DNA of 64,000 nt from Tubulanus polymorphus (taxonomy: Eukaryota > Animalia > Nemertea). The DNA is taken from the NCBI RefSeq assembly GCF_964204645.1, contig NC_134029.1:9140850-9204849 (forward strand), read 5' to 3'. Numbering within the stretch: position 1 is the stretch's first letter; each line of letters begins with the position of its first letter. The position numbers were made by a program, and so were the translations under genes. Positions 31,451 to 60,460 of the stretch are shown piece after piece. The notes under the pieces are model-generated. The model saw only the letters and a list, made by a program, of their open reading frames with translations. It ran no database searches and was not told the origin of the DNA.

Positions 31451-31506
31451 TGACTGATTACTAATGACGCTAACTAGCGGTCATAATTTGTACTATGTAT
31501 ATTATA

Positions 31507-33601: not shown

Positions 33602-36600
33602 TTAAATATCAGCACCTGCGTTGTCATAGATTTCGGTGAATTCCGGTAATGCAAACTCTTCCCGCCCGCCAGCAGACGGGGTCGCTTGTGAAATCCTTCT
33701 CGTCGACGGGGCGACGCTGATCATATCCGGTTCAATGCGTCGTCTGTGTTGCGTGTTGCTGCACAATATTACTAACAACAGTATGAAACAGCCCAGCGAT
33801 AACAATATCGCCCAAACGATCAAAGCTATGAACATATTTCTGTTGATAAACGTTGATTTATAATCAGATTGCGCCCCTAAAAGAAAACGATATATTCACT
33901 TACTCATCTGAAATCTATCGATAAACATTCGTTACTAAACCCAAGACTAACAACGATTAGTCTCGAAAACTAATCCAAAACCCCTTAGAGCGAAATGAAA
34001 TTGATAAGAAATTTCACAACGAAAGAAATCGGTCGCACGAGAATCGTTGTACAGGGACAACAGGATAAGAGACAATTTTGAGCCTGAGCTTTTTATCTTA
34101 CTCTTTCACGTGTCCAGATTATGGCGCGCCAAAGCGTCACAAATCCGAGATGTTATAAATTCATTTTCTGTTCAAGACGCCTTTCCGTTCTAGCATACCA
34201 TATGTAGATTAACTTACCTGTTGATGGTTTATTATTTTCGTCCTCGGATGGCGCGTAGCACGTCGACGTGCCTTCAAAATTCATACAAATCTCTGATGCT
34301 TTGCAACGACTTGGGGACTCGCATTCATCTATGTCTAAAAGAAAATAACGAAATCGCAATTTCATGAGTATTTACATTACTTACTAATATGTAGTATCTA
34401 TATAGTAAAACAAAAAGGAATAAGCCATTATTTGCATGTAAAAGCTTAGGGCAGGCATTTTGATTTTCATATTCTATTTCAGAGTGTTAAGCATTTCATT
34501 TCAAATGATTACCGGTGCATGTTTTATTGTTGTCGGATAACGTGAATCCCTTGCCACAACTGCATATCGGTCTACCTTCCGAGTGACCACACGTTCTCGT
34601 GCAACCGCCATTATACATGTTGCATTCGTTTACATCTACAAATGCACGTAAATGCAAAAATATACATTTCAAGTTCTGTTGCAGACTTCCCCGCAACCCC
34701 TTGCCGAGGAGAAAGCTTAATTGGCATTTACCTAAACAGGTTTTTCCGTCCTCTTGTAGTTTGTATCCGGGATTGCATTTACATTGAAACCAAGGAAACT
34801 GATCTATGCATAGATGGTCGCATCCTCCATTGTTGTTACCACATTTTGTCACTGAAAAATTTGAGAATTCGATCAGTGTATGTAAATCATGATTATTAAC
34901 TCAATCAAGTAATCTCGATATGATAAGTGCATCGAACAAACTGTTGTAATTTATCAAATAAACTAGAAATAAAAATAGATAAATGAATAAATATATAAAA
35001 CCTCTATACCTTTGAAAGCTCCAGGCGGCCCTTGTTGGCCAAACGGACCCGTAGCACCAGTAAATCCATCGTCACCTGGGGGCCCTTTGTCTCCACGTTT
35101 GCCTTGTGTACCGCGATTTCCCGTAACGCCTGCAAGACAATGATTGAATTATAGTTCATCGAAATGTTAGTGCAAAAACGTAACTAATCGGATTAAAAGT
35201 AAACCAGTTGGATAAACTAGGGAGTTTGTCGTACTTCCCTAAATACCACCAACTCTTATCTAAGCATGAGCTAGGAAATATAATTTTACCTTTTATTCCA
35301 GTAATACCCATTGGTCCAGCGTTTCCCGGTGGTCCGGGAATACCCCTCGAACCTGTGACTCCCTTTTTACCAACAGGTCCTTGGTTGCCTTGTTGGCCAT
35401 CTATACCCGGAGGTCCGATTGCACCCTGATCTCCGGTCTGTCCCTTCGGCCCTTTTATTCCTGCATCTCCTTGTTCACCTTTAACGCCAGAAGCACCCTA
35501 ATATATACAGGAAAAACAAATGACAATCAGTAAATGACGCATTGGCAATTGCACTGTCAGTAATCGAAATAAATGCTGAAGTTTCTGTCTGGATTACCTG
35601 TGCCCCCGTAGATCCACCGGGACCGTCCGGGCCAATACCTCCTTGTACACCGGAAGCTCCGGGCAATCCTTGGGCACCCGCATCTCCAGTTGCACCGGTT
35701 GCTCCGGGGCCACCAATAGGAGGCAGTACGTATTCAGAACCTAATGTACAAATCATATGATAATCAAAACCAAATTTTTTCACATTTCCCATCAATCTTT
35801 TTTTCTAGTATTTTTTTTTACTTTTTATTTGTATTCCCAATTTAACCAAAATATATTTCTCGCAGTCCACTTTCCTTTTTCTCGCATAGTTCAACTCCTT
35901 AATCGATTTTATTTCGTCATAAATTTAGTGTATGTTAAATCATCTTCCGTCCTGACTTTTTTTGTAAAACGTGAATGAAATCCGAAGAATGAAATCCGTT
36001 GAGTTCAAACTCACTTATATCGGCGTTTATCGGGTACAGTTTTGTGTAGGAGATGCCGGTCTCTTGTAAAACTTGACCTTCAGTGGGTACCTCTTCGTTT
36101 TTCAGATTACGTATCTCGATGACGTCCGAATTGGGCGGCGGGGGAATATTCAAATACTTGAAAGTAATGGGGTTGTCACCGATGGTTGTAAATCCAATAT
36201 AATCGCCAGTTTTCACAGTTATTTTGTTCGGCGGATAAACCTGAAAAACATGACCAGTATTCTACTAACTCACAAAAAAATAATGCATACTCACGACTGA
36301 TAATTATTCTGTGATACAATCAAGGTTGTAAACAGTATGTCACAAATGCAATTTCAAGCTCAATGTGATCTTCATCATGCATTCTACACGCTGTTTTGAA
36401 ATTAGAGATCCTTGCATAATTTACGACTGATCTCTCAAATATTTTGTAAATTTGCTGATGATTTCTCTGGGCAAGTGAAATTTTCAACGAATTCGACTTA
36501 TCTATCGCTGGGTAAATACCTATCAAAAACTGTTCACTTTTTTGCTACAGCAACATTTTCACGGGGTTAGTACATATCTTTTTATGTACTACGCTTGTTA

Positions 36601-39600
36601 GAAAACGTTTCGTACCCTGTATTCACGCGGCCCCGAGGGTGCAGAAAACGGCACTTCGCCGACCAGAGCGAAGTATTCGCCTTGTCCAACATTCACCGGG
36701 CGCCAGATTTGCAGATTTACCGACTCATTATTGGCTAGGTAAGCGTTGAATCTCTGTACGAATCCGTCGTTCGGTATCGGTTTTCCGCGTACAATGTAAG
36801 ACTGAATGATGCTTGGAGCTTCATTCGTTAACCTCGAGGATGTGTCCGGGTTTCCAACTCGCACGGTCGATAAAGTGGGTCGTTTCAAATATCGTGAACC
36901 TGAAAATACACGTATTTGAAATCGATGTGAAATGATATTTTTTACGATAAAAAATACCATATACGGCACAAGGAAAAAGCGTCACCCTCTCAACGCACCT
37001 ATTTCAACATTGGCTTGGAAGTCGGCATCCTTCACTAGTTTTCCAGTAGGAAAGACAGAGCCCCCGACTACCGGGTCGGCGCCGATCACGTCGACAGTCG
37101 TAATCTGAGAAACCGTTTGAAGCTTCGCAAAAATCGGGTTCCTGTCCGTTATCATGAATCCAAATTTGTCACCTTTCTTAACGGCTATTGCGGCACCTTC
37201 CGCTGGATATACCTTTTACGGAAAAGAAATAATCAATGAAAGTACCATTTACAGTAATTAAGTCATATACATTACCAGCGAGTCTCACATTCTTAGATTT
37301 CTAATTTACGCCAGTCAAAATACCGTTTATAAACAGTCTGCAAGTGAGGGACCAAACGTAGTTGGAAAAGCCCCTTACTTTGCAAAATCAGGCCACAAAG
37401 TCAATTGATACAATTTCAGGCCCGTACCCCTAAAATTTTCAAAGTGCCTGCCAAAACTGCAGTGTCAAAACATTTTGGTCAAGATTTTTCGAAATTTGGA
37501 TACAATTTCCATGTTTTTTTTTATTGAAAAGTAATCCATTCCCAGATGATCTATTCACGTACCGGAACACTTCATATCTTAAGATCTGTCCTTTTTCACG
37601 GCGAGAAGTTATGAGGTATATTGTTAATCTGAACCAAAAGCGACTGTACGACAACTGTGATTCACGCGGTATCACGAAACGTCTTGGATAGTTTCTTGCG
37701 ATGAAAAAGATACCAAAAGTTGGATGGAACTTTTCAAGATCATCATGTCACGACTTACCGTATATGAATCGGGCGGTTGTTCTCTGGAATTAGGCGTAAA
37801 TGGCTGCTCTGCGACTAGCTTATATTGATTTGGGTTCGTCGATTCCAGCCGATAAATTTGGAATTTCACAGTCTCGTTCAGATTCATGAAGCAGTTGAAT
37901 CGATACACGTAACCGTCGGGAAGGTCCGAGTCCTCGTATATGTATATCCGTTTGCCAGGTGCCGCAGTTTCGTAACCGCCGCTGCTGACTGGTCCGCTGG
38001 TATGGCCGTGCGTGGAAACTTTCAAAGAAAAATACAGTGAATATGAGAAAATGAAACCAATGAACTCAAACATACGAATAGAAAACAGCGCCGAAACTCG
38101 GGAGTGACATTAGACGCACTGCAATGAAAGTCATAGAATGAAAAATCAGCAAGATATCTTCAGATTTTAAATCTCATTTCAAAGAAGGCGTTCGAGCGCA
38201 AAATTCCTTTGGAATTAGAATATTTTGGGAAATTGTCTTTAAGAATTACGAATGTCAAGCCCCAAATTTTTTTCAAAGACAAAACTTGACGACGGTTATA
38301 ATATTACATCGCTCTCACGTCTCATTGTTGCAATTTTGAGAAATGAAGTCTGAGTTTCGGTAGTTTGAATCCAAGGACCGTCGAAAAATGATAAAACACG
38401 CATCACAAATAGTTTTTTAGAAAAGGGAAAAATGACCCAACACAAAAGTACCCGAATAAAAATGGTGGCTAGCAATCAAAATATTGCAGTCTAAGTTTTA
38501 CATACAGCCAATTATTCGACTCCATTCGAATCGTAAAAAGTAAAATCTTTTCCAGAGCCGTCGGAAAGAATTTTTCAGTGGCGAGGCTTATTTCTGAAGG
38601 GGGTCTGGGGGCCCTCCGCTAGAAAAATTTTGAAAATTCAATCGCCGGAGATGCGTTTTGGGGCCATTTCACGGTCTCATTCACAGAAGCATGAGAAGCC
38701 GTGAGCCAACCACCTAGTACAGAGAACGACGAGCTGCTACGCGGTACAGCGTGCTTTGAAAAATATTTTGTTAAGCAAAAAGTGGGGCGGCTTTGTCCGT
38801 CACTGTTTCCTGTTTTCAGAATGATAGTTCGATTGAGTTCATTTTTGTTCAGAACTGAGATGACGATATACTTCCCACATTATCACGTCAATATTCGATG
38901 AAGATATAGCATTTTTGGCCCATACCAGAAAATGTGTAACTTACTTGTTGTATTTGGTTCGGTTAAAGGCACATCCGCTGAAAATATCGAGAGCTCGTGA
39001 AAATATGTACGATGAATAAGCTGATACAAAATAAATACATTGTAGCAATAAATAAAATATAATTCGAATGCAAAAAGATGAGATGATTCGAAGGCAATAA
39101 TTCCTTCACTAATACGTACAGATATCGACTCGAACTGCGAAACGGTAACCATCCAGCCTATTGACCACTTCTACACTACTTCCGAGTTGAGGTCCGCCGG
39201 TCTTGGTATCTAACGTTTTCATTTTGCTTCCGCTATCGCTATCGTAACCGGGAACGTACACGACAGGATTTGAAGCAGTTCCTGACGAGAAAGCCAGCTT
39301 ATCCCCGGCTTTGATAGGAAAATTTAGAGTCGTGCCAGCTTTTACGTACGTATCGATGCTTCGCCTTTGTCTCCTTGGCTTGATACCGTATTTTGAATCG
39401 CCATATACCTATAGTTTTAAGATTCAAGCAACTGCCTTATTCTTTTTTAAATTCCGACTCAAAAACAATCCCTGACGGCCAAATATGTTCGCAACACAAA
39501 TAATTTAAGACTTAAAGGACGTTAGGACCAATTATGGGCTTTTGCCTGGTCTCATTTTGAAGCTTTCAATTATAAAGGTACCCATGGAAACCTAATATCT

Positions 39601-42600
39601 AAATTAATCAACTCATCTATGAACGATGGCATTTACTGATCAAGGAAGATACGTTTCGACTCCGTGTTACGCATATACGACAAACTGAATTACTACTGGT
39701 CAAGCGGAATAGTTCTATGGGTCTACTGGTGAGCGCGCTTACTTTCAACGTACTAGACCAGGGTTCGCTAGATTTGATCAGATGCAGTTCAAAGAAAGTG
39801 ATTAAGAACAATAATTTGTGGCAACTGTTTTGCGCTAATTTGAACCGTGATATTTATCCTAATTTTGACTTAAACTAATTATGCAGTTAATATTTACCAC
39901 GAAAGTGCCAGGAAACGGTGCTCTAAAGGGCTGGTCGAAGATCAACTCGTATTTGTTTTTATCGACGAGGTCAGGGCGATAGATCTGCAGACGTACTTCG
40001 TCTGATGTTTTCACCGTTGTTGTAAATCTATACAGGTACCCGGCCGGTAGATCAATGGAATCAAAGATATCCACGAAGAATCCAGTTTCTCCCTGTTTGG
40101 CCGCGGGGTCGTTCAGCGATATCGATGGATTTCCGGCCGAAGAAACTGCAAAAAGGAATTGATATCGAATATGTTAATTTTCAATATTCTCAGGGGGATA
40201 CGACGGGCCGTATACGGGTTATTGGTGGCTGATTCGGGCTATATCGAAAGAAATTCGTACCGTATAAGTTATACATTCTAGATGTAAAAATATTCACCTA
40301 GTGAGAAAGACAGAATCAAGAAATCGGCTACCATCCTCTTAATTTAAACGAATGTGTACTTACCTAAAACCGTTCCTTCAACAACGGGAACTTCCGGTAG
40401 AGTAACATTTGATCCACCAGGTGCTGAAGTAAATCATAGAAAAATTCCTATGCAGATTAAGACACCGAAAATACCTCGATGATATACTGTATGGGTGATT
40501 TTTCAAGGTTCCTTCTGCATTAACTGCCGAAATTCCATCATTGCTGTCATTTTTAAAGTAATAGAAGACGATAGTTACCTGCGACTAATATGGACGAAAG
40601 AGTGACCAATAACGAATATTTGAATGCGTTATTTTTCTCCTTGAATTTCATTTCAGTTTGTCCGATAGAAGTTCTGTCAGTAGGATTCGCGAATGTGAAA
40701 GTTAAAACCGGTGAGGTCTCCTGCCCAGGAAGCCCGTAGCTGGCTATGGGACTCTGCGTTCCGAGACTGGTAAAGCCAAGCATATCTCCATTTTCAACTG
40801 GCATTACTTTGTCGGCGTAAACCTACCGAAAAAATTAATATTTTTCAAATTTAATCGGAAACCTAAAAAATGATGGTGTATTTCGCATTTATCTTTCATA
40901 TAATCGCTTTATTATTTCATTCTTATCTTTAAAAACTTACGGTAACGACGCCTGTAATTTGTGGTGTATACGTCATCTCATTAAGAAGTGTCAAGTTTGT
41001 GCCGTTCGGGCGCCATATCTGAAATGCTACCGGCACACCTTTCGTGACGTAGGCATTGAAAGCGAGTAGATACCCGCCTGTCAGGTTCGAATTCTTCAGT
41101 ACGACCGTCTTATAGCCATCTCCGAACACTCCCTGCAATAGCTGATTTCCGCCTCCCGAAACTAAAGAGACGTTTGAGATACATTCGATTAACATTTCCA
41201 ATGTGAAGCCTAGTCAGTCTCAGCGCATCTTACAATTCTGAGTCTAATAAAATCGGAAAGGAAATAAAAACTCCGGATGCGATAGTTACCTGTTGTGAAT
41301 ATCGGCGACATTGTAATCGAAAGGGAATATTTGAATGCATTGTTTTTTTCCTTGAATTTCATTCCAGTTTGTCCGACAGCAATTCTGTCAGTTGCATTCG
41401 TGAATGCGAAAGTTAAGACCGGCGAGGTCTCCTGTCCAGGTAGCCCGTAGCCGGCTATGGGACTCTGCGTTCCGAGACTTGTGAAACCAAGCATATCTCC
41501 ACTTTCAACTGGCATTTCTTTGTCGGTGTAAACCTACAGAAAAAAATCAAATACTTATTAGATTCAATCGGGAACCTAAAAAGTGATTGCATATTTCGCA
41601 TCTAAGTTGTTCGCGTCATTTCTATCTTTCAGAACTTACATTAACAACGCCTGTAATTTGTGGTGTATACAACATCTCATTAACAAGTGTAAAGTTTGTG
41701 CCGTTCGGGCGCCATATCTGAAAAGCTACCGGCACACCTTTCATGACGTAGGCATTGAAAGCGAGTAAATACCCGCCGGTCAGGTTCGAATTCTTCAGTA
41801 TGACCGTCGTATAACCGTCTCCGAACACTCCCTGCAATAGTTGATTTCCAGTGGCCGACGCTAACGGAATGTTTGAAAAAAATGATTAAAATCTTTCGCA
41901 CCAAGCGTATAATCAGTTTCTGCACTACATACAATATTAACTTCAATAGAATGATAGAAGATCCCACACAAACTCGCGATACGATAATTACCTGATGTGA
42001 ATATCGGTGACTGTGTAATCGAAAGGGAATATTTGAACGCGTTGTTTTTCTCCTTGAATCTCAATTCGGTTTGTCCAACAACAGTTCTGTCAGCAGGATT
42101 CGGGAATGTGAAAGTTAAGACTGGTGAGGTCTCCTGTCCAGGAAGGCCGTAGCTGGCTATGGGACTCTGCGTTCCGAGACTGGTAAAACCAAGCATGTCT
42201 CCACTTTCAACTGGCATTTCTTTGTCGGCGTAAACCTACATAAAAGAATCAAATACGGTACTTATTCCATCGGAAACCTAAAACGTGATGGCGTATTCGC
42301 ATCTAGTTGTTCGTTTCATTTGTGTTTCACAACTTACGGTAACGACGCCTGTAATTTGTGGTTTATACGTCATCTCATTAACGAGTGTGAAGTGTGTACC
42401 GTTCGGGCGCCATATCTGAAACGCTACCGGCACACCTTTCGTGACGTAGGCGTTGAAAGCGAGTAAATATCCGCCGGTCAGGTTCGAATTCTTCAGTATG
42501 ACCGTCTTATAACCGTCTTCGAAAACCTCCTGAGATAGTGGATTTCCATTGGCTGACACTAATGGAAAATTTGGAAATAAAATTTTTGTTAAAAATTCAT

Positions 42601-45600
42601 CACGCGAAGACCTTTGTCACTTTTAACAAAATAATAAATTTACCTTCTATGAACATTGAAGACATTGTAGCCGAAAGAGAATATTTGAATGCGTTGTTTT
42701 TCCCTTTCAATCTCAATTCAGTTTGTCCGACAGCAGTTCGGTCGGTCGTATTTGTGAATGCAAAGGTTAAAACCGGTGAGGTTTCCTGTCCAGGGAGTCC
42801 ATAGCTGGCTATGGTACTCTGCGTTCCGAGACTTGTGAAACCAAGCATATCTCCACTTTCAACTGGCATTTCTTTGTCGGCGTAAGCCTTTAAGAAAGTG
42901 AAATGGAAGGCGTATTTGATTCCATCAGGAAGTTACATTATCCTGAGCCAGGTTTCACAAACACTTCGTCGGTTTAATTTCTTCATTAGTTCAGTGTACA
43001 TGTGTATGCTGCTTAAGTCGACTAAAAATGTTATTCCCTTTTGTGAAACCCGACATACGGCTTTGAATTTCATTGTATAGTTTTAAATGCAAAAAGTGAT
43101 GACGTCATTTCTTTTCATAAGTTGATGGTTTAAAACTTACGGTAACGACACCTGTGATTTGTGGTGTATACGTCATCTCATCAACAAGTGCAAAGTTTGT
43201 GCCGTTCGGGCGCCATATCTGAAACGCTACCGGCACACCTTTCGTGACGTAGGCATTGAAAGCGAGTAAATATCCGCCGGTCAGGTTCGAATTCTTCAGT
43301 ACGACTGTCTTGTAGCCGTCGCCGAAAATGCCCATCAATAGGTGATTTCCGTTGGCCGACACTAAGAAAATGTTTGGAAAAAATATGTAAAAATTCTATA
43401 GTCTGTTTCATTGCTTTACACAATTTTGAGTCTCGTGTAATAACAAATAATCGTCTATCGCTAGAAATATCGATTGAGCTCTTGGAAGTTTTCTGATAAA
43501 TTGTACCTTCATGTCCGAACATTATGCGGCATTCAATTATGTAACGTGATTACTTACTACTGGCTACTGTCTACGAATTACTTTATAAGTTCTGTTCGTT
43601 TATTTTCAAATCGATTCGAAATTTGTGAACGACAAGACCAGGTTACAGAAACATTCGTACTATACTTACATATAGGTGCAGGCTGTGTTGGTACCGGGGA
43701 TGTAGCTGTTACCGGAGCTGTCTGTGTTGAACTCGCTGAAGTCAGAAAAATATTATATTCATCAATTCATTCATTCGTTAATTCATTGATTAAATATTTC
43801 ATTCATTCATTCATTTGATTTGATAAATGTTATTGTTTTAAACCGGGTTCAGGGAACACATTTTTGTTGATTCCAAACATTTGCCGTCTCAAACACAGAC
43901 CACTTACCTTTAGTAGTGATGGGAGAAGAAATCGGCGTTGTTACAATATTGGTTGTCGTGGCTACAAGATGTATTACGAATGAATAGAATGAGCTATCAT
44001 AAACTAATGTACATTGTATCATAACGTGGAGAGAATAACCTCACAAATCTTTTTCCATAATTATACAGATGATTGTTATATGTTATGGACTCTGTGTTTT
44101 AAAATGAATGTATTTCTTTCGCTTGGCATAATTCAACATGAATAAACGATTAATACTCACGGCAAGGTGGATCTTTGTAATCTGGGCCTGCAAAGTAGAT
44201 AGTGATAGTAGCGTATCAGGTAGTGATAATGGTAGTAATGATGTAAGTTCTGATGATCATGGTAATAAAAGATAAAAGAAGTGATGCGGCAGATGGTAAC
44301 AGTTGTGGTTGGGGTAGAATGGGGCGATGGCAGTGGCAATGAAGGTAGTACGAGTGGTAGTGCTATCACAAAAATTAGAATGAACCGGAACCGAAATTTC
44401 CAATTATGTACTTCGATTTACACAGAACACGCTGTAAACTCAACCGTCGATATCACCAAAGCACTTCGACTTTCGATTTCAAAATCAACCCCCACTTTTA
44501 CCTCCCGACAGGTGTGCACGTGGGTTTCTTACTGACACCAAATCAAACGAAATCTACCAACTGAATAAATAAAAGGGTCAATCCCTATCATTGATAAGAT
44601 TTAAAAAGATTGAATGGTAGAAGCACCGTGGTTATAGTGACTACAGGAATTGGTAGGGCAGAGGTAGGGGATTAGGTTATGGGTAAGCGGATTGGAACAA
44701 TATAGACGAGTAAATACACTGTGTGATCGTGATAATGTGAGTGGCCAACGGGATTCATGGCGAGCCTTTCAGCTTTTCAATTCACATGGATAGACACTTA
44801 CACAATTCAGGATGCGGTGCAATGTCTACGGACAGAGACAACTTATAGGTCAGGGCACTGGTCGAGATGCTAACGATCTCGTTCAATTTTGCCATGTCCT
44901 CAGCTTTATCAAATTGACGGAACACTGTCGTTTGCGGTTCGATTCGAATTGCGTATGATCCATTTCCGAGACTGGAGCCACCCAAGTGTTCACCACCTTC
45001 TAGTTTGATAGGATTTGACCAATCCATTTTGATCTATAACAGGAATTCAAACAGAGAGGGCTCGTTTAGATTCAAATACATGGTGGAAAACGGTTATCTG
45101 TAAAAAGGCGACACCTACAGTATGCTCCCCAGGAGTTTCAAACTGAAACGGTACATCAGCTATAAGTTTGTAGCTATATTGCGTCTTAGTTGGTCTGTAG
45201 ATCTGGGCTTTGGCTGCGTAGTTGGTCTTAGAGTACACATTCATCCGACAGACGTAACCAGCCGGTAGAGATTCGCTTATTATTACCATTGAAAAATACC
45301 CTGCCGTCACCGTATCACCTGACTGGACGACGGGATTACCAAATGTTTGAACTAGAAATGATGAATGGTAATATATAAATCGACAAAATTAATGGAAATA
45401 ATTCTCGCATATGTAACGGTGACTTGAATCAAACACGTGTCAGAAAATATATCATAGAATCTAAGATTGTATTCCCCTCAGACCGATGACTGTAAATATC
45501 ATTTCACCATTAACACTTGGTCATCAGTTTCTTGGGATAAACATTTTATTATATCAACTCTGTTTTCATTAATTTATCAGGTCTACATTGTTCGTTACAT

Positions 45601-48600
45601 TCTCCTTAGATTGCTTATCTTATCCATTTCCTTTCACTTGAACTATTGCAGACATGCGCAAAAATATGGTGGCTGATAAGGGCCATAGCGTAAAATTCCT
45701 GGTATGTAAATGAGGGCGCCAGAACGCAAAAAACGAAAAAAAAACGTCCAATTTTCTCTGAAAATTCGTTTTGGCGCCAAAACAAAGAATATTTAGTTTT
45801 GGCGGGAACTTTCATTTTGGCACCCCCGCAAAAACAACGAAAAACGTCGAAATTTCTCTAAAAATCAGTTTTGGCGCACCAAAACAAAGAAAATTACGAA
45901 CTTTCATTTTGGCGCCCCCGCCAAAACGAACTTTCAACCACGTAAAATAATTCTATATATGCAAATTACACACAGGATCAACGCACCAAATTGAAAAATA
46001 ATTTTATGGGGTTGGATGCTTGTTTTGGCGGGGGCGCCAAAACGGAAATAACCGCGCCAATACGAAATATTTTTGTTTTGGCGCGCCAAAACGAACTTTC
46101 AGTGAAAATTTGACGTTTTTTTTTTTCGTTTTGGCGTTCTGGCGTTCTGGCGCCCTCATTTACATACCATTTTTTACGCTATGGCCCTTATCAGCCACCA
46201 TACAAAAAGGATGGCATGGATTGAATTGCTGAGAGATTATGTGAACAAATGTTAAAAAGGACGGAAAGAAAAGAACAAATTTTTAGGGGAAAAAACAGTC
46301 CATTCTAGATCATGCATAATGAATGAATTTTGGATTTAAAACGATGATTGTTACTCATTTTTTTACCTTTGCCATTGGATGGAATCGGGTCGGTTGACAC
46401 GGGACAGAAACCGGGGACTATCGGCCTTGTGACGCGAGGAGGCTGAGTGGTCGATGATGCTGGACTACTAACGACCGCGGGTGTAATAGTGGATGTAATG
46501 GCAGGCGAAGTTCGTACCGGTGTTGTCGGAGGTTGTGTGGTTGGTGGTTGTGTCGGTCCTTAAAAAGGAACATGATCAAGACGGTCGAATAAATCAATTG
46601 TGTAAAAGATATGAGAAATAGACTTCATTTGTGCAGCGTGTTTTACCCGGGGTTGTGGTGCAGACCGGAGCGGTTGGCACGACAAAGTTGGAACCTGAAA
46701 TGATAAGTCAACAACTACTGAGTTTCGTATTTTGGTAAAAGGAATGATAACCAGAGGCTTTTGCCATCATTTTTTTAAGTGGCGATCTTTCATCATATAG
46801 ATTGTAGAGGCTATCTGACTACTAGCATTGCGTGATACAAGCTACAAAATGCAGTGAAGTTGGCATTTTACTATGATTTCTTACTGAGAGTTACTTGCAC
46901 GTGGCAGCCAATATGCGGCGCTGTGTCGTCACACGAATAACCTCTATATACATGTAGTGTTCAAATTGAAAATTAAAACTTACAAACGGTCGGATGAGAA
47001 GCTACCTCAGCCTTTATCATATATTTATAGATAAGTGCACTCGTGGAAATTGTATAGATTTCCCCGACTTGAGGAAATCGAGATGGTTTATTCGTTTGTT
47101 GACGAGTATATGTGCTGTATTGTCCTGATGCATCGGGCTGCCAAGCGATACTTGTTATGCCGTCTTTATTATAGAATCCAATCTTGTCACCGTCTGCGAT
47201 TTCTATTGGGTTGTTATTCCAATCAACATCTACCTAATAAGGAACGTATCTTATCCGACAAAGATGTTACAAAATAAAACGCAATCTACCAAGATCGAGG
47301 ATGACCTAAAGATTCGGATCTATCCTGATTGCGATACTTACGGTATATGGTCCGGCAGACTTGGCTGTGAAATCTATATTACCGACGAGAAGCCATGGCA
47401 AATTCTCCGAGTCCTGATTTGGAGGAGCTCGCCATATTTGCAAAGATACTGCGCCTGGTTTCGAGATCCATATCTTAAAGTTGCAGAGCCATCCCTTGCT
47501 CAGGTTTATAGTATACAATATAGTGAAAATGTAGCCGTCTGTTGCGCCAATTCCTTCAACGATGTCGGCTCCATACGATGTGACTGAAAACAATATTTCA
47601 ATGAAAGTAAACCTTCGGCAGAAGAGTTGAGGTACCCGGTAGATGAATAACCATAAAAGCATTCAACTGCGTAAATAGGTTTGTTTATAACGAACGTTTT
47701 CAGGAACCTTCCCCTCGTTAGGTACATAGTCGTACCTGATGTAACTGTACTTGTACCTAATGAGGGGAAGTGTTCCCGAAACATTCGTTATAGATAAAAT
47801 TTTGAAAATGAGATCTTATTGTGTTTACGCTTATATGGTTATTCAAATAGTTCAATCAGTCCAGCTAGACTATGCCCACTGGAAAAGAGTCTGAAATGCT
47901 CAACAATCTGACACTTTCAAAATTCCATACCACGTGAACATATACCGAAACCTTAAAACTCACTGAAATCATAGAATGTCATGAGCTATAACTTTGCAAT
48001 TGAATTGGGTACAAAATATCCATAGATCCCAATATAGATGGAAATACGACGTAATTCCACCATCCAACGCCCCCTGGTGAATGTATGCAGAAACAAGGGA
48101 CCTCGAAAATCAGCACAATCATATAAAGCATCATATCTACAATTATGCTAGCGATTGTGATTACAAAATATGTATAGGGGCCAATATAAATTGAAAGATT
48201 TAATACTTTTCTATATTCAACTCCCCCTGGTGGTGAGAACGATACTCTGGGTGACCAGTATTCCATGTGAGGAGATGTGTCCTGTGACAGATATCAAGAC
48301 TATAAGTTAAAACATAATGATATATTTTCCTCAAAAACCATTCTCCAGATATGAGCGATAACTGATGGAACTAAGATGGCTGCTGGTTGCATCAAAATCG
48401 ACTAATCGACTAAACCCGTCTGATATGTAAAACTCTAATTTCAATGTAACATGATAAACCATGTAGAAGCTAGAGGCCTAAGAATTCAGACCTAAAATCA
48501 CCTTTTTGAACAAAAACGACACAATACAGCCATCTTGTTTCTCGATCGACCCAATTTTTCCTGTGATACTAAGCCCTAGGGATACATATTCGCATGCAAA

Positions 48601-51600
48601 ACCTAAGAAAATAGAAAATAAAAACGCTCAAAATTGCTGAGATTTTGCCGAGCAAAATATTCGGCTTGATTCAAATTGCGCCAGTATTGGACTGTAGAGT
48701 CGGTTAGGGTAGATATACAAATTAACCAAATATCAAGACCATACATAAAAGCGTATTGAAAACTTCCCAAGAAAACTGTATTCCGTCTTTCTGTCTACAA
48801 ACAGACAGACGGACGGACGACGGACAAGTATAGGACATAAGTCCCAAGTGGGCTAAAAAGATTGGCAGAGAATATGACAAAGAAATAAACAATGAATTTG
48901 ATTGGATGAGCAGGTTATAGTCGTAATTTTACTCGATATTTCTCTAATTGATAATTTCTTATCATTATAACGCGTACCGTTTGCTCCGGTAGGAGTGGAT
49001 TCCAAAAATATCGAGTCGACGGTTCCACACCTCTTCGGTCCAATTGTTGTAGCTGCACACGGTGGAACATAACTTGAACCTTTTATTTAAACAAAATAAA
49101 TTTAGACACAGGTATGCATGCATACGTGGTTTTTTTCAAAGCCACTTAATTGTTGTAAACTTGTTCCACAAAATTCATGAAATGTTTTTACAGCTGAACT
49201 TACATTTTTGCGGATAGTTTGCAATGACGATGGAAACCGAAAATCTATAAGTAGCTATGGATTTCTCAATGGATATAGTTTGCCCTGTGGTCGGTAACTG
49301 TCCCGACAGTTCCGTGTAGAATGTGCGGGCGTTGGTGTCAGGGGAAAATCCAACGGATCCCGTATTCGGCATCATTATTCCGATGTATTCTCCGCCTTTC
49401 AGTTTTATTGGGTTGTTCCAGTCTGTTACTGAAATCTAATTCAAACCAGAAAATATGAGTGCATGGGTAATACTCCAGGAAGTAAACTGCTTAAATGCTT
49501 GATAATCTTTATTATACATCTAAACTGAAATCTTGATTAACATTTCAGGATCAAAGCACCAAAATGCCGATTAGCAATTACCTCGTGTTCTCCTACGCTG
49601 GGTGCAGTGAATTCAAGATCTTGAATCAGCATCCTCGAGGTAGTCAATTGATTGTTGCCGGTATTTTTCCAAATCTGGAAATGTGCCGAGACGTTTTTGA
49701 CCGCCATATACGCGCTAAAACTGCACACGTAGCCCTCGGGTAGTGGGTAAGAAGCTAGCACATAAATGAAAGAACCGCTCTGAGAAGGGTTTCCTTTCAC
49801 GACTGGATTGCCATGTGTGGACACTGAAATATCATTGACATTTATCAAAAAGTCATTTTCCATTTGTCAGTGTATGCGATGCCAACAATGATCTTTTTGT
49901 CATACCTTTGGCATCCACGGGAATGGAAGGCGACGAACACGTAGATGCGGTGGATGAACTACTTGGATCGGTTCCTTGCGGTGCAGTACTGGCAGGGGAT
50001 GTTAACTGAGTTGGTTTCACTGTGCTGCTGGCTACATTTGGAATTTTGGTTGTACTAGCCGCCGATGGGGTTGAAGGTAAAGCTGTGCTGGTAAGTATCG
50101 TTGTGGGTGCCATTGCAGTAGTAGCCGGAGGTGCTGCACTGGTCATCGGTGTTGTTGAAAAGGTTGGCGCAGGTGAAGTAGCTGAAAGAACAGGGAATGA
50201 ATTTACGTCACTGAAAATAGGATCGAAGCTTTTTAGTCAACAAATTGCCAAACGAAAGAACCAATTTGCATCAATATGCATTCAATTGAAAATTCTCAAC
50301 GGATTTTTATCATGCTTAGCAAAATATGTAACTTCGTTATCGATGCCGAATACTCACGACAAGGGGGATCCACATAGCCTTTGCCTAAAATAAATGAAAT
50401 TAATAAAATGATCTAAATTGGAAAACAAACTTGGTAAAATGTGTTATCCATCCATATCTACTTACAAAGTTTAGGGTGTGGTGCAATATTGACCGAAACT
50501 GAAAACATGTAAACTAATGTAGAAGTCGATACGGCAACGTTTTGTCCCACTTGTGGTAGACTTGTTGAAAATGTATACTCTCTATAGTAACTAGGTTGGA
50601 AGGATGGTGCATAAGCAACTGAGCCAGACTTTAAACTTGTCAAACCTAAATATTCACTACCGCTTAATTTGATCGGATTGCTCCAATCTACCGGAACCTT
50701 GAATATAAAATGAAACAGCCCCGATAAGTAAAGCTAAAAGACATCTTTTTCGTTTACAGAATGATAGAGAGAAACCAGTGAGTATAAATTCGAATGGTAG
50801 TTTATCATGTTTAAAATCTTGAACTTACCTCATGAACACCGGGTGTTTCAAACTTAAATTCTCTCTCTGCGAGTAAATTCCAAGTAGGTACTGCGCCTTT
50901 GAATATTTGAATTCTTGCCACGTGATTATTCTTGGTGTATACATTGAAATAACACACGTACCCAGCCGGAAGTGGTAAAGATGTTAACACGTAAGTAAAA
51001 TAGCCATCGTTTACTAGACTGTTTGCATCGACAACCGGATTTCCAACATCTTTGGCTGGAAATGAACATTTAAATTGTTTAAGCTAAAGAAAATAAACCT
51101 AAAAAAGAAAATAAACTAAAAACGAATGAGCTATATTACCTGATTTGTTAGGTGGAACGGGTTCTGTTGAAACTGGACATGTTTTGCCGTTAGCTGGGGT
51201 CGTGTTAATTGTAGAATCTGTTTGAGTTGAAGGGTTGGAAGTAGTGGTAGCTGGTTGAATTGAAGGTTGCTCTGTGCTCGCTGTTCTTGATGTAGTGGCA
51301 GCCGGTTGACTTGAAGGTTGTGCTGTACTCGCCGATTGTGTGGAAGGTTGTGTTGGACTCGCCGGTGTGGAAGGTTGTGTTGTACTTCGTGGCTGTTCAG
51401 ATGAAGCTGGTTGTGTTGTGCTAACTTGCGTTAGAAGAGTTGGCGCAGCTGTGGTCGTTGCTGAAATGGAATGTAATGGAAGAAAGCGGTGATGAATATT
51501 TCAGTTCTGTGTGTAGGTTGACAGTAACTTGCTTTGGCGCACTAGACGGCTCAACACGGGTTTTCAAAGAGGTTTTTTTCTTAGAAAATATCAACCACAA

Positions 51601-54600
51601 TGATAGATTTTGATCAGACAAAAATAACATAATTGTACAAAACGACCTGAAACGAATTAATACTCACGACACGGAGGATCGACGTAGCCTTTACCTAAAA
51701 CAAATAAAACCAGTTAGAATAGATAAAGAAACTTCGCAATATCACAATATCAACCCATATTTACTTACAAAGTTTAGGATGCGGAGCAATATTGACAGAA
51801 ACTGAAAACATGTAAACTAATGTAGTAGTCGATACGGCAACGTTTTTTCCCACTTGTGGTAGACTTGTTGAAAATGTATACTCTCTATAGTAACTAGGTT
51901 GGAAAAATGGTGCATAGGCAACTGAGCCAGATTTTAAACTTGTCAAACCTAAATATTCACCACCGCTTAATTTGATCGGATTGCTCCAATCTACCGGAAC
52001 CTTGAATGTAAAATGAAACAGCCCCGTTAAATAAAGCTAATAATAGAAATCGTTTTCGTCTACAGAATTATGGAGAGAAACCAGTGACTATAAATTCGAA
52101 TGGTAGTTAATCATTTCAAAATTTTGAACTTACCTCATGAACACCGGGTGTTTCGAAACTAAATTCTCTCTCTGCGAGTAAATTCCAAGTAGGTACTGCG
52201 CCTTTGAATATTTGAATTCTCGCCACGTGATTATTTTTGGTGTATACATTGAAATAACACACGTATCCAGCCGGAAGTGGTAAAGATGTCAACACGTAAG
52301 TAAAATAGCCATCGTTTGCTAGACTGTTTGCATCGACAACCGGATTCCCAACATCTTTGGCTGGAAATGAAAATGTAAAGAACAGAAGATTTCAATATTC
52401 AATGCCACATGAAGAACATATTGATAAGGCAATGAACTTAAAACTCACCACAGTTATAGAACATGTCTCTAGCTACAATTATGCAATTGATTGTGGTTAC
52501 AAAATGTGCACCAATACAATATGAAAATACTAAGTGATTCAGCTATTTAACACTCTCTAGTGACCATATACAAAAACCAATGACCTTGAAACTCATCACA
52601 ATCATGGAATATGGCACAAGCTACAATTTTGCAATTCATTGTGGCTACAAAATATTCCTGGGTACAAATACAATATGAAGATAGGAATTTATTCGGCTAT
52701 ATAGCACCCCCTGGTGACCATATGAGAAAAACCAATGACCTGAAAACTCTTCACCATCATAGAACATGTTACGAGCTACAATTCTGCAATTGATTTTGGT
52801 TACAAAATATCCATAGGTATCCATGTAAATAGGAAAACTGTATATAATTCAATATTCAAATCCCTGGTGGCGGGAACGAAAACCTGGTTAACCCCAATAT
52901 CGCGCGACGAGATGAATACTTCGAGAGTGATACTATCTATCAAATATCAAAACTATAAGTCAAAACCTGTCGATATTTTCTACAAAATACCTTTTTCTAT
53001 CTACAAATGACGACTGATGAAACTAAGATGGCTGCTGATTGTGCCTCGCTTGGCTGATCAAAGAATCTGTCTGATATATTTAAGAGCCGTTCTCAAAGTA
53101 TAAGCAGCAAGAATTTCAAGGAAACCAAACCATTTGAGAGCTACAGGTGTCGGAATTCAGCTGGCCGGTTCCCCAGTTGAGACTTAGGTCCAAAAATGGT
53201 CTTAAATCTTAAGACTGGTCTTAAGTTGTTAGATCGGCTATAGAACTTAGATGGTCTAAAATTGGTCTTAAGTCTAAGCTATGATAATGGAACTGGGCCC
53301 GGGCAAAAATGACTTTTTGGGCACAAGAAAGGCACACGATTGCCATCTTATGTCCGATCGACCCAATTTTTCTCATGCTAATGCATCATGGGGGAGGGTT
53401 ACAAACACATGTGGAAGATCAAGATAATTGATCAAAGCGATTTCAAAATTGTCCCTTGAAAACTACACAAATGTGTAAAAAGTGCTGATTTTGGTGGACA
53501 AGAAATGGCTGCCAGTCGGCCATCTTGATTCTGATCGGGCCAGTTTCCGTGAAGAAGATGTAGCTAGGTTAGATGCATGTATAAACCAAAGATCAAGACA
53601 ATACATTGAAGCGTCTTCAAACTCCCCAAAATAGCTGCATTCCGTCTACGGACAGGCGGACGGACGGACGGACGAACAGACGGACGAAAAGTGAACCCAA
53701 TAGCTTGCTGGGAGTCGCAAGTGGGCTAAAAAGAATGTAGCTATTTTACCTGATTTGTTAGGTGGAACGGGTTCTGTGGAAACTGGACATGTATTGGAGT
53801 TGCCGTTAGCTGGGGCAGTGGAAATTGAAGAATCTGTTTGAGTTGAAAGTTTGGAAGTAGTGGTAGCAGGTTGACTTGAAGGTTGTGCTGTACTCGCTGG
53901 TTTTGCAGTAGTGACAGCCAATTGACTTGAAGGTTGTACTGTACTCGCTGGTTTTGCAGTAGTGACAGCCGATTGACTTGAAGGTTGTGCTGTACTCGCT
54001 GTTTTTGTAGTAGTGACGGCTGGTTGACTTGACGGTTGCGCTGTGCTCGCTGGTTTTGTGGTAGTTTCAACCGGTTGACTTGACGGTTGTGCTGTACTCG
54101 CCGATTGTGTGGAAGGTTGTGTTGTACTTCGTGGCTGTTCAGATGAAGCTGGTTGTGTTGTGCTCACTTGCGTTAGAAGAGTTGGCGCAGCTGTGGTTGT
54201 TGCTGAAATGAATGGTAATGGAAGAAAGCGGTGATGAATATTTCAGTTCTGTGTGTTGGCTGACAGCAACTTGACGGCTCAACACGGGTTTTGAAAAATT
54301 TTTTGTCAAATGTCAACCACCATAATAAATTTTGAAACCGACAAGAATAACATAATTGTACAAAAAGACCTGAAACGAATTAGTGTTTGATACTCACGAC
54401 ACGGAGGATCGACGTAGCCTTTACCTAAAACAAATAAAACCAGTTAGAATAGAAAAGGAAACTTCGCAAAATCGCAATATTAAACCATATCTACTTACAA
54501 AGTTTAGGGTGTGGTGCAATATTGACAGAAACTGAAAACATGTAAACTAATGTAGTAGTCGATACGGCAACGTTTTGTCCCACTTGTGGTAGACTTGATA

Positions 54601-55436
54601 AACGTGTATATTCTCTATAGTAACTAGGTTGGAAGAATGGTGCATAGGCAACTGAGCCAGACTTGAAACTTGTCAAACCTAAATATTCACCACCGCTTAA
54701 TTTGATCGGATTGCTCCAATCTACCGGAACCTTGAATATAAAATGAAACAGCCCCGAAAAATAAAACTAAAAGACATCGTTTACAGAATTATGGAGAGAA
54801 ACCAGTGAGTATAAATTCGAATGGTAGTTTATCATGTTTAAAATTTTGAACTTACCTCATGAACACCGGGTGTTTCGAACTTAAATTCTCTCTCTGCGAG
54901 TAAATTCCAAGTAGGAACTGCGCCTTTGAATATTTGAATTCTTGCCACGTGATTATTTTTGGTGTATACGTTGAAATAACACACGTATCCAGCCGGAAGT
55001 GGTAATGATGTCAACACGTAAGTAAAATAGCCTTCGTTTACTAGACTGTTTGCATCGACAACCGGATTCCCAACATCTTTGGCTGCAAGTACAAATAACG
55101 AGTTTAATTTTAGGGAATGTGCTCTTGATTATACCCGTACATTATGGTAACTACAGAATGTACGCTTAAAATCCGAAAATGAGTAAGCTGACGATGTTAC
55201 TTTACCTGATGTGTTTGGTGGAACAGGGTCTGTAGTAACGGGACACGTTTCAGTTCCTGTAATTGTTAATACCGAAAATTCAATTATCATTTTATTCATA
55301 CGTACAGATGCAGATCGATGATTTTGATTTGAATTATATGATATTTCCAATTACCGTTTGCAAATGCATTCAAAAACGTGATCAACAGTAAAGTGCGTAT
55401 AAAAAGACTATAGCACCGCGAAAAACGAGTTGCCAT
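33602..55436 (-). CDS. Uncharacterised giant type I membrane protein (~3,046 aa, 49 exons): signal peptide, 13 repeats of an unassigned ~150-aa domain with mucin-like linkers, 49-triplet collagen, EGF x2 + truncated EGF, TM, cytoplasmic tail
   Basis: Frame-consistent GT-AG exons (minus): 55436-55355, 55256-55206, 55082-54856, 54730-54499, 54424-54398, 54202-53750, 52360-52134, 52000-51769, 51694-51668, 51460-51140, 51055-50829, 50697-50466, 50384-50358, 50181-49906, 49823-49582, 49435-49204, 49079-48978, 47583-47342, 47233-46984, 46694-46647, 46558-46367, 45351-45119, 45033-44802, 44187-44161, 43961-43908, 43735-43670, 43361-43141, 42887-42644, 42558-42338, 42235-41992, 41860-41640, 41533-41290, 41161-40941, 40822-40579, 40423-40364, 40145-39898, 39408-39120, 38977-38945, 38018-37759, 37212-36999, 36899-36616, 36240-36015, 35740-35598, 35497-35290, 35129-35010, 34851-34732, 34635-34513, 34334-34218, 33876-33602. 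Total 9141 nt, a multiple of 3. Signal peptide MATRFSRCYSLFIRTLLLITFLNAFANG; TM MFIALIVWAILLSLGCFILLLVILC. Confidence 0.85.
34218..34851 (-). CDS. EGF-like exons of the giant gene (two complete, third has only four Cys)
   Basis: KCGNNNGGCDHLCIDQFPWFQCKCNPGYKLQEDGKTC; DVNECNMYNGGCTRTC...CSCGKGFTLSDNNKTC; DIDECESPSRCKASEICMNFEGTSTCYAP. Confidence 0.92.
35010..35740 (-). CDS. Collagen triple-helix exons of the giant gene (13+23+13 = 49 uninterrupted Gly-X-Y)
   Basis: GGP GAT GAT GDA...GAQ | GAS GVK GEQ...GIK | GVT GNR...GPP GAF, counted codon by codon. Confidence 0.92.
40579..43361 (-). repeat. Four tandem ~700-bp two-exon units (domains 7-10 of the giant gene)
   Basis: Exon pairs of 221 + 244 nt repeated four times with near-identical peptides (GGYLLAFNAYVTKGVPVAFQIWRPNGT; MPVESGDMLGFTSLGTQSPIA). 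Confidence 0.95.
45667..46200. mobile_element. TA-flanked MITE with long TIRs
   Basis: ta|tggtggctgataagggccatagcgtaaaa...ggtatgtaaatgagggcgccagaacgc is mirrored by ...ttttacgctatggcccttatcagccacca|ta. Confidence 0.85.
47644..47846. mobile_element. Small foldback/MITE remnant
   Basis: tgaataaccata...ataacgaacgttt..ggaac.cttcccctcgttaggtaca is mirrored by tgtacctaatgaggggaagtgttccc.aaacattcgttat...tatggttattca. Confidence 0.65.
47860..48859 (-). mobile_element. HINE/DINE-1-like element (same family as 7086-8370)
   Basis: Ends gacggacggacg...gtcccaagtgggctaaaaa (reverse of the family head) and begins atgcccactggaa (reverse of the 3' subTIR). Internal ccccctggtg repeats. Confidence 0.75.
52385..53732 (-). 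mobile_element. HINE/DINE-1-like element inserted in one intron of the triplicated unit
   Basis: Reverse complement of the 7086 family: (gacg)n and caagtgggctaaaaa at 53650-53732; ~154-bp units at ~52420-52870. Confidence 0.8.
53163..53299. mobile_element. Small MITE nested in the HINE
   Basis: ggccggttcc ... ggaactgggcc termini with internal gtcttaag repeats. Absent at the homologous position of the 7086-8370 copy. Confidence 0.65.
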
Positions 55437-57757: not shown

Positions 57758-57761
<4 letters not shown>

Positions 57762-57788
<27 letters not shown>

Positions 57789-57800
57789 CATACATACGCA
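57762..57800. repeat. (CA)n microsatellite
   Basis: Directly visible. Confidence 0.95.
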
Positions 57801-58274
57801 TATTCTCAGACTAATCCATGTTTATTCATTAATATTGCGGAGAAGGATACGGAATAAACCAAAAAAAATACATTCAAGAATTTTGCCTAATGTATGCAAA
57901 TTATTTGAAATTCGGAAATACTTTTTTCAATAGATGTAAAATCTCAAGGACAACTATTTCATTTACGTTATATATTGATTGTCTCGGAATGATATATTAT
58001 TTGTATTGCAATGCGACTTCTATCAAAAAATAGTAATCATTATGTATATTGGTATCAAATTTATTGGTATAAGTTACATACTCGAATGTGTTGACCGAGA
58101 ATCACGGTGATATCACAGAACGTGCTTCGTCTTAGAAGACCGATAAAGGGCAGGGCCAAGTTCAGTTGAAGGTTAAATTTGACTAGCGGGGTCAAAATAG
58201 GAGAAGCTTTATTATCTGTCATTTGGCTTAGTCGAGTAATATTCCACAAATGTGTTAACTTTGTCGTCTATAGT

Positions 58275-60460
58275 CTAGTAGTACTCTCCGCGGTAACTGG
58301 AACCTGGTCGCGATTCTTGTAGTCTTGGTAACGAAAGTCCGTACTGTTTGTCCCAGTTCGAGTCGACATCGCGTCGTAGCACGTTATCGTAGTAGTACTT
58401 CTCTTCGCGGCGTTGTCTTTGACGTTGGATGCACAAACACAACGACAACGACAACAACAGAATCGTCAAGATTATCAACCAGACGATGAAACCTATAATC
58501 GTTTTGTCGCTGAGTAGATCGGCTGAGATACCAGTTTGAGCTGAAAATAAAGAATCAGATTAACATTCTGTAAATTATACTCGTTCGCGATGTACTGAGC
58601 TTTGAATAGCTGATCGAAGACTGCTAGAATCTTACCATAGTTTTGCAACTAAAGCAATCTATGAAAATTAAGAGCCTTACCAGAAGCAGCTGGTTGAGCA
58701 TTGGTGTCTTTTGAAGTCTTATCGGATTTTGTTAAACATACATATCCTCCGTATGAGTTGACACACATCTCCTCTGATGTACAAGTAGCCCGACCAGTTA
58801 CCGAATTCAAACATTCGTTATTGTCTGAAAATCGAAAGAAGACGAACTGATATTATCAAAACCTATGTAACAATATTACGAACATTTGGCGAAGGGCTAT
58901 CTTACCAATGCAGGTTTTGCCATCTTTACTAATAATGAACCCGCTATCGCACTGACACGTGAAACTGCCTATGCTGTCAACGCATTTGTGTTGACAGCCA
59001 CCGTTATTGGTATTGCATTCATTGATATCTATAAAGAAATAAATCAAATGATATCTTCCCTTCAATAAGGGTCCGATTCATGAAATGTCGTGGAGATTCA
59101 CATTTATCTTAAATCCGGTCCCTGTTAATGTTGGACATCCGAAATGTCACTTACTTCCGCATTTCTTTCCGTCGGTTAATTGATAACCGTCGCGGCATTC
59201 GCAGTAGAAACTGCCGAAGGTATTTCTGCAAACGTGCTGACAACCGTGTGTATTTGTTTGACACTCATCGATATCTACATGAAAGCAATGAATTCATTAT
59301 ATCTCTGTGTAAAACATCTTTGTTTTAAGACTTTCTTGTTTTGGCTATACTGGGATTAAAACGCATACGCCAAATTTGGTGCCATTTTCCATTTGAATGT
59401 AGCTTTATATAACTGTTTCGATAAATTCAAAGCACTATTTTTGAATTCCAAAAACTGTTTATATTCAATATATTATTCCGGGCAAATTGTGGTCAATTCA
59501 TATATTTTTCATATTTGATAACAATAAGAACTCCAACAATATTATTTAGGAGATGACGACCAATTCATAATACTGTAAATTCTAATGCAGAGCTCAGCGA
59601 GACAAACTGGAAACTTCCACAGTAACTACGTACATAAATCATCAATAATCCATTCATAGGAATAGTTGTAATCAAAGAAATCGTAGCTATACCGATTAAT
59701 AATTCATGAACTTTGAACGCAGCCAATATATGGTCTATTATATAAACGTCGGAATGGTTCACAGAATTGGTATTAAAACGTGCCTATTGCAGATACAGAC
59801 CTTCATAGAGATCTCCTTTCACGCCTGTTGATCCTGCAGGTCCCCGAATTCCTTGTTCTCCACGGTCACCTTTGGGTCCATCTGCTCCTGGTGGACCTTG
59901 TGGCCCATTGTCTCCTTGTTTTCCTTGTAGCCCTTGAACTCCTTGAGCGCCATCGCTTCCTTTTTCACCCGGCGGACCGGGGTTTCCCCGTTCACCCTGT
60001 GGTCCGGCCACACCGACTGGGCCCTGCCCACCTTGTGGCCCTTGATTGCCACGTACACCTTCATTCCCTTTGTCTCCGGGTGGTCCACGAATTCCTGTAT
60101 CTCCTTTCAAACCGGGAGGTCCTTTGGGACCAACTTCGCCATCCTTCCCTGGGCCACCAATTGATCCAGTTGGGCCCGGTTTTCCTGGTGGCCCTGTAGG
60201 TCCAGGTGGGCCAGGTGATCCTTTAGGGCCTATTGGCCCTGGAAGCCCATTATCAACGACAGCAATATTTGCGACTGCTGTAAATAGAATCCGCTGACTT
60301 CAGTATACATTCTATATCAAATACCGCTGCTTTTCATTTCGACACTTAAATTTTAATTTCATTTTCATTTCGAGTCTAGAATTCATGGATTTCACTTACC
60401 AAAATGCAATGAATTAATGATTCCAATCGTGACGAAAATGGCGCAAACTTTAAGATCCAT
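58275..60460 (-). CDS. Short type I membrane collagen-EGF protein (~396 aa, 6 exons), paralogue of the giant gene's C-terminal part
   Basis: Exons 60460-60400 (signal peptide [20 protein letters not shown]), 60277-59801 (49 Gly-X-Y, 60248-59808 = 441 nt), 59274-59155 (cb[30 protein letters not shown]), 59028-58906 (cbEGF), 58824-58681 (4-Cys EGF), 58540-58275 ([26 protein letters not shown], tail ending RGEYY*). Total 1191 nt, a multiple of 3. Confidence 0.9.

Follow-up and report, generated by a model that had tools for sequence, protein, structure and literature searches.

The closest described systems to the proteins considered here are the MACIT collagens (types XIII, XXIII, XXV) and C. 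elegans COL-99, which span the membrane once and carry a collagenous ectodomain (PMC4678570). The MACITs are described there as type II proteins with interrupted helices and with a coiled coil and furin site by the transmembrane (TM) segment, and the paper has 0 occurrences of the word "heterotrimer" (PMC4678570). In a 64,000-nt stretch of the genome of the nemertean Tubulanus polymorphus (assembly GCF_964204645.1, contig NC_134029.1, positions 9,140,850 to 9,204,849; hereafter the window, numbered from its first letter), two adjacent genes on the minus strand encode membrane collagens of another layout: a giant gene, whose product we call chain A, and a short gene, whose product we call chain B. 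Both chains are in type I orientation, with an N-terminal signal-like peptide and a C-terminal TM, and both carry 49 unbroken Gly-X-Y triplets. From sequence comparison, A and B appear to be diverged paralogous membrane collagens that likely co-assemble. We consider a heterotrimer of A and B probable when all stoichiometries are taken together, and lean with moderate confidence towards two short chains and one giant chain as its most likely form.

Unlike the MACITs, A and B are type I proteins with an unbroken helix and an EGF neck, and the giant chain carries N-terminal heads. Neither chain begins with a cytosolic domain followed by a TM, each has one unbroken collagenous domain, and a furin motif (R-x-K/R-R) beside the membrane is absent, the short ectodomain having none and the giant chain its only one in head 11. 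To our knowledge, the membrane collagens described beyond the MACITs are also type II, and membrane collagens described so far, MACITs included, are homotrimers whose assembly starts from a coiled coil. Collectins, ficolins, C1q, class A scavenger receptors, CL-P1, gliomedin and ectodysplasin join a collagen stalk to a recognition head, as here, and the C1q A, B and C genes are clustered and form heterotrimers. In these proteins the heads are C-terminal, trimerising and present on every chain, and the membrane members are type II, whereas the Tubulanus heads are N-terminal, belong to an unnamed, predicted jelly-roll family and are absent from one chain; EGFs follow the helix in place of a C-type lectin, fibrinogen, gC1q or SRCR domain. 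CCBE1, whose Atlas clusters lie nearest (score 0.82, a lead only), likewise combines collagen with calcium-binding-type EGF, but it is secreted, has its EGF before the collagen and lacks a TM, whereas A and B have collagen before EGF and a TM after. We assign A and B to none of these families. The streptococcal proteins Scl1 and Scl2, compared by description only, have an N-terminal head, unbroken collagen stalk and C-terminal anchor as here, but are bacterial and homotrimeric, with a self-trimerising head and no EGF. We found no paper on this layout, species or set of accessions (subscription papers and supplements lay outside the search); as far as searched, the family is undescribed and its layout is without a description.

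Two adjacent genes with 49-triplet helices

In a six-frame scan of the window, Gly-X-Y runs appeared at no site other than the four that a preliminary description made from the DNA letters had listed. The chain A helix (35014..35714) is encoded by three exons joined at GT-AG sites: 35714-35598, with 13 triplets and a phase-0 intron after it; 35497-35290, with 23 triplets plus 1 nt and a phase-1 intron after it; and 35129-35014, with 13 triplets. The chain B helix (60248-59808) takes up 441 nt of a single exon (59801..60277). The preliminary description had counted 49 triplets in each gene, and both counts were reproduced, the 13+23+13 of chain A by the scan, the exon model, RefSeq protein P0001, which contains the identical 49-triplet run, and a contig of run X4, and the 441 nt of chain B by the scan, the exon model and a spliced X4 contig. 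The region is present in four runs, none recorded as RNA, and X4 among them was treated as RNA since it has spliced contigs. One X4 contig of 1702 nt covers chain A exons 36238-33379, with internal distances of 480 and 143 nt that equal the model exon lengths exactly, and a single X4 contig contains the short gene in full, spliced at all six introns (five coding introns and the 5' untranslated region (UTR) intron).

After the helix, both chains continue with EGF, EGF, a truncated EGF with four Cys, a linker, a TM and a tail of about 50 residues, an arrangement that held as first described; the first Cys of this 16-Cys array comes 4 residues after the helix in A and 6 residues after it in B. 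In chain A the EGF exons (34218..34851) measure 120 nt (EGF1, 34851-34732), 123 nt (EGF2) and 117 nt (4-Cys EGF), and the TM, a tail of about 52 aa and the stop lie at 33602..33876. In chain B (58681..59274), EGF1 (59274-59155), EGF2 (59028-58906) and the 4-Cys EGF with linker (58824-58681) are all phase 1-1, the TM, a cytoplasmic tail of about 50 aa and the stop lie at 58275..58540, and the 3'UTR runs to about 57806. The EGF1 and EGF2 exons have identical lengths (120 and 123 nt) and phases in the two genes, which are adjacent, on the same strand and both spliced in X4; from the equal exon lengths and phases, A and B are therefore paralogues. Identity from EGF to TM is 34%. In the helix, X/Y identity in register is 10/98, which is background and no better than at other offsets, in keeping with the divergence noted before; of the 147 helix residues, 17 are Pro in A and 28 in B. 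PF01391 scored above cut-off in both chains, placing both among the triple-helical collagens, and only collagen and EGF families passed the Pfam cut-off in either.

Chain B is a protein of 396 aa in which a signal-peptide-like N-terminus (by eye) and about 7 residues precede the helix. Its 5'UTR exon starts at 61233 in the spliced X4 contig, and the ATG, at 60460, lies in exon 2 (60400..60493). At 8 codons ahead of the ATG, this spliced exon contains an in-frame stop, so that no head can be added upstream and the short chain is headless, as had been claimed. An Ig I-set exon further upstream (63896-63525, minus strand) was considered as a head and rejected, given the short gene's own 5'UTR exon and upstream stop. 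This Ig exon ends in a stop, is covered by an X4 contig and is the last exon of a gene lying upstream, separate from the short collagen.

The last head exon of chain A retrieved RefSeq LOC141906210 (P0001) of T. polymorphus, which maps exactly onto exons 43361-33602, and LOC141906211 (P0006) covers 50113-44785. RefSeq thus divides the giant gene into at least two models, neither with an N-terminal signal peptide, and no contig bridges 44802-43361; because of these two facts, the single gene of 50 exons with open reading from 55436 to 33602 (3053 aa) is a predicted model. It begins with a putative signal-peptide-like first coding exon (55355..55436), which lies outside the transcript cover. One could argue that a fragment or an allele was taken for the short gene, or that the counts stem from mis-called splice sites, given that RefSeq splits the giant gene and that a search with the chain B TM exon gave no match among 181 candidates and no short-chain database record was found. 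We regard such an artefact as very improbable, and it is largely refuted: the spliced contigs equal both models in length, base for base, a start, a stop and a 3'UTR of its own are present in the short gene, and the EGF-TM identity between the chains is only 34%.

Cross-chain charge pairing

Inter-chain Lys-Asp/Glu pairing had been put forward earlier as a check on co-assembly. An axial pair was defined as Lys/Arg at Y of triplet n with Asp/Glu at X of triplet n+1 on the next strand, or of n+2 from the trailing to the leading strand. Counting in this way gave the pair numbers reported for two peptide series in PMC12086834, and the definition agrees with that in PMC12533406, where Lys-Asp axial pairs are those used for designing A2B and ABC heterotrimers. 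With flush ends, B leading and A trailing, B and A form 9 canonical cross-chain pairs, four from B to A (B K3-A D4, B K16-A D17, B K20-A D21, B K42-A D43) and five from A to B (A K15-B D17, A K18-B D20, A R30-B E32, A K36-B D38, A K41-B D43). With the highest-scoring of the three possible cross-interface sets used each time, this score was matched by 42/50,000 partner shuffles; it was also matched by 14/10,000 shuffles of B and by 5/10,000 block shuffles, the other nulls spanning 2-14/10,000; under net-charge scoring, 11/50,000 shuffles reached it. The best of the 48 other linear offsets gave 5 pairs, and the one circular shift that ties at 9 is the flush geometry renumbered. Self-pairing in homotrimers did not rise above shuffles for A (p 0.09), B (p 0.17) or chain C (p 0.36), a third Tubulanus paralogue introduced more fully below.

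Chain C also forms 9 pairs with B (1,333/50,000 shuffles; next offset 7), of which 6 fall at the B x A places, whereas A and C show no complementarity to each other (p 0.33). When Lys-Asp pairs only were counted, a mode chosen after seeing the pairs, 8 were found against about 2 expected (0/20,000), for A and C alike. Lys stands at Y16 and Y42 in B and one triplet earlier (Y15, Y41) in A and C, and Asp stands at X17 and X43 in all three chains; with the Lys residues staggered and the Asp in common, a ring of three bridges closes only if the long chain trails. Register-specific inter-chain pairing, a mark of heterotrimeric collagens, was thus found, by charge count only, and helix lengths match as well (49/49, with 49 places plus 1 residue in C). 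Of 392 windows taken from unrelated collagens and comparable in charge content, 0 reached the B x A score.

The 27 possible trimers were then compared by total pairs. BBA and BBC gave 13, BAA, BAC and BCC 11, BBB 10, AAA 7 and CCC 6, while counts of Lys-Asp pairs only were 11 for BBA and BBC, 9 for BAC and 8 for BAA. A B-leading heterotrimer of other make-up (BAA, BCC, BAC/BCA, or a mixture set by expression) has in its favour that both significant interfaces, B to long and long to B, are common to BAA, BAC and BCC, and that BAA reaches 12 pairs by net charge. These trimers would exchange the B-B interface, with 4 Lys/Arg-acid pairs, for A-A, A-C or C-A interfaces of 1-3 pairs that are not above chance, and they fall behind BBA and BBC in the Lys-Asp counts. 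We think such a make-up unlikely.

Helix length across the family

An exhaustive search using two heads returned 16 proteins. Chain C (P0002, LOC141905155) has four heads in its record, followed by collagen, three EGFs and a TM, and its helix reads 25 triplets, one Gly-to-Ala place, 6 triplets, a four-residue break and 16 triplets, that is, 49 places plus one residue. It lies outside the window and has a net charge of +14; its record lacks a signal peptide at the start, and its 5' end is probably incomplete. Abalone P0011 has the same layout with two heads. A profile search, in which 120 of 2,148 matches were listed, crowded by unrelated collagens, and proteins of more than 1,005 aa were excluded, added Haliotis cracherodii, Haliotis rubra, Patella, Gigantopelta, Argopecten and Mizuhopecten. 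P0007 (Capitella), P0014 (Owenia) and P0003 share the heads and have a comparable TM motif (G/A-L-I-V/L-W-L) with 0-5 collagen triplets and no EGFs, so that in annelids heads and TM travel without the helix.

Across seven mollusc species the helix has 57 places in six and 56 in Patella; this count omits H. rufescens (same cluster as H. cracherodii), isoforms and P0076, which is partial and has a vWA head. X/Y identity between mollusc genera is 5-17%, which is background, except for the two scallops (35%). In an unrooted tree of the EGF-TM part of 9 sequences, A and C group together (96/95) while B and the molluscs branch from one point, and one length change on this tree suffices for 49 versus 57 places. 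Length is therefore held nearly constant while X/Y residues decay, and equal length in A and B is expected from inheritance and is by itself no proof of co-assembly: the match is beyond chance when set against unrelated collagens, but not when set against inheritance.

All five gastropod proteins (P0011, P0017, P0140, P0019, P0020) have a break that is one residue short exactly 16 triplets before the helix end, which the scallops lack. The chain C break also lies 16 triplets from the end, but orthology of C to the mollusc gene was not supported, X/Y identity being at background and the tree placing C with A. In EGF1 (59274-59155 in B, 34851-34732 in A), a one-residue deletion is common to B and the molluscs, and A and C have the longer state; from this deletion, the mollusc headed gene may be closer to headless chain B.

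Heterotrimer or independent homotrimers

Several observations weigh against co-assembly of A and B. Equal helix length needs no partner, since inheritance with one length change explains the counts; chain C has two breaks that are absent from A and B; and Pfam recognised no chain-selecting trimerisation domain in A or B. No headless chain, from molluscs or any other species, was seen among the 120 listed of the 2,148 profile matches, a weak negative given that listing and the exclusion of long proteins. With charge content ignored, 271 of 2,480 unrelated windows (71 proteins, overlapping, many charge-rich) reach 9 pairs, and some abalone windows reach 8-10 pairs with B. Shared ancestry can leave an in-register charge signal: of 21 cross-species mollusc pairs, one reached p<0.01, the two scallops with their 35% X/Y identity; A/B identity, however, is at background. 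Charges kept from A to C were paired with B in 7/10 cases vs 3/10, which is not significant (p 0.09). The evidence for co-assembly is a charge count, neither a stability model nor an experiment, and the 2:1 ratio is not settled because BAA, BAC and BCC, at 11 pairs, come close behind.

A rival reading is independent homotrimers. The two genes would be tandem paralogues with an inherited 49-triplet spacer, and the charge match would be due to chance or left over from an ancestral homotrimer. The held length of 56-57 places with decayed X/Y residues in seven mollusc species, one gene being seen in each, fits such a history, as do the single length change, the scallop pair as a case of ancestry mimicking pairing, and the 10 axial pairs and 19% Pro of BBB. 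Yet 4 of the 9 B x A pairs join a B-only residue to an A-only residue and are unpaired in either homotrimer at this geometry, and two of these four recur in C. The other 20 of the 21 mollusc controls gave no signal at p<0.01, and A and C, which are closer relatives, with 10 same-charge positions in register where A and B have only 3, show none. Independent homotrimers appear rather unlikely. The heterotrimer first proposed in the preliminary description gains from the register-specific charge pairing, repeated in C, and loses matched length as evidence, this being a family trait.

Proposed assembly

In the heterotrimer of A and B, B would form the leading and middle strands and A the trailing strand, giving a stalk of about 42 nm, at the textbook rise of 0.29 nm per residue, that would hold a single string of 13 predicted lectin-like heads off the cell surface. 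The chains, held in the endoplasmic reticulum membrane by their C-terminal TM helices, would be brought together at the EGF/TM end and zip up from there in the N-terminal direction, as suggested by the nucleation of secreted collagens at their C-terminal end. Lys-Asp rings at triplets 15-17 (B K16-B D17, B K16-A D17, A K15-B D17) and 41-43 (K42/K41/D43), together with the chain-specific pairs B K3-A D4, B K20-A D21, A R30-B E32 and A K36-B D38, would fix partner and register. The helix-to-EGF linker is 2 residues longer in B (6) than in A and C (4 each), a difference equal to the stagger between leading and trailing strands; this is suggestive only.

Chain C would occupy the same trailing slot as A, so that B would serve both long chains as a common scaffold and the long chain would be an exchangeable carrier of heads. 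One head string per stalk instead of three would suit a head region of about 2,650 residues. It had been proposed that the ratio of the chains tunes how many heads are displayed; this is not favoured, as the pairing points to one arrangement, with 2:1 best, and paralogue C suggests that head type is swapped rather than head number tuned. More tentatively, and at somewhat less than even confidence, we propose that these type I membrane collagens form a spiralian family not described before. In it, two headless scaffold chains would join one interchangeable long chain (A or C), and a Lys-Asp code within the helix, not a trimerisation domain, would set partner and register.

Heads of the giant chain

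The giant gene model contains 13 copies of a domain of about 155 aa. Heads 1-6 (43670..55256, with four X4 joints) are encoded by two exons each, with Thr/Ser/Pro-rich linkers between them, and heads 7-13 (36015..43361) fall within RefSeq P0001. Internal duplications are recent: heads 1-3 (55082-50358, minus strand) and the tandem heads 7-10 (43361-40579, minus strand) are near-identical, introns included. A furin-like RRQRR lies in a loop of about 25 aa inserted in head 11 (exon 39408-39120, minus strand; protein about aa 2262-2266). Cleavage there would keep two heads whole on the stalk, as many as all mollusc orthologues have, and could release the ten outer ones.

The heads matched no Pfam family. 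For them the Atlas gives 30 unnamed eukaryotic clusters (best 0.94), with PF18560, PHR and DUF4082 as leads at 0.85-0.87. A single-sequence model of two heads had a pLDDT of 38 and was not used, and the fold was taken from a model of the abalone orthologue built from 7 sequences (head pLDDT about 70-90). This model is a beta-sandwich. It matches the lectin-like domain of Cwp84 at Z 13.0 (rmsd 2.9 with 144 aligned) and a capsid chain of a cyanophage at Z 12.9, and further matches are PHR (Z 8.2), F-type lectins (fucolectin, Z 7.4) and CBM32; identity to the structural matches is 9-15%. Foldseek with the abalone model gave nothing clear for the heads, and no solved structure fell at head positions among the best 60 of 168 matches. 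The heads are thus predicted to be jelly-roll folds like carbohydrate-binding modules. Since the capsid protein ties with the Cwp84 domain, the fold does not show sugar binding; such binding is a likely reading. The likeness to carbohydrate-binding modules makes a collectin- or scavenger-receptor-like role likely, and the molecule would act like an upside-down tethered collectin or scavenger receptor in glycan adhesion or microbe binding, the ligand being a guess. The same domain occurs in tandem arrays in a hemichordate, in a snail astacin-apextrin-CUB-kringle protein and in metagenome proteins (P0004, P0008, P0009, P0010, P0015).

Other features of the window

Elsewhere in the window, an apparently intact non-LTR retrotransposon (26748-30608, plus strand) carries, by eye, a 211-aa open reading frame (ORF) and a 979-aa endonuclease/reverse-transcriptase-like ORF. 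A single-exon ORF (19727-18750, minus strand) is 7-TM receptor-like by eye and has no Pfam match at E 0.1. The stretch 31458-32050 is repetitive, with open frames on both strands.

Implications

Collagen architecture is broadened by a type I family that occurs in both nemerteans and molluscs and bears an unnamed lectin-like head. If the proposed assembly is true, A and B would make a heterotrimeric transmembrane collagen with modular display of one giant lectin string per stalk. A natural pair of 49-triplet chains with complete Lys-Asp rings bears on an old question, how far the triple helix itself selects partner and register. The pair would make such self-selection by the helix, without a C-propeptide or NC1 domain and as in designed peptides, testable with short recombinant chains.

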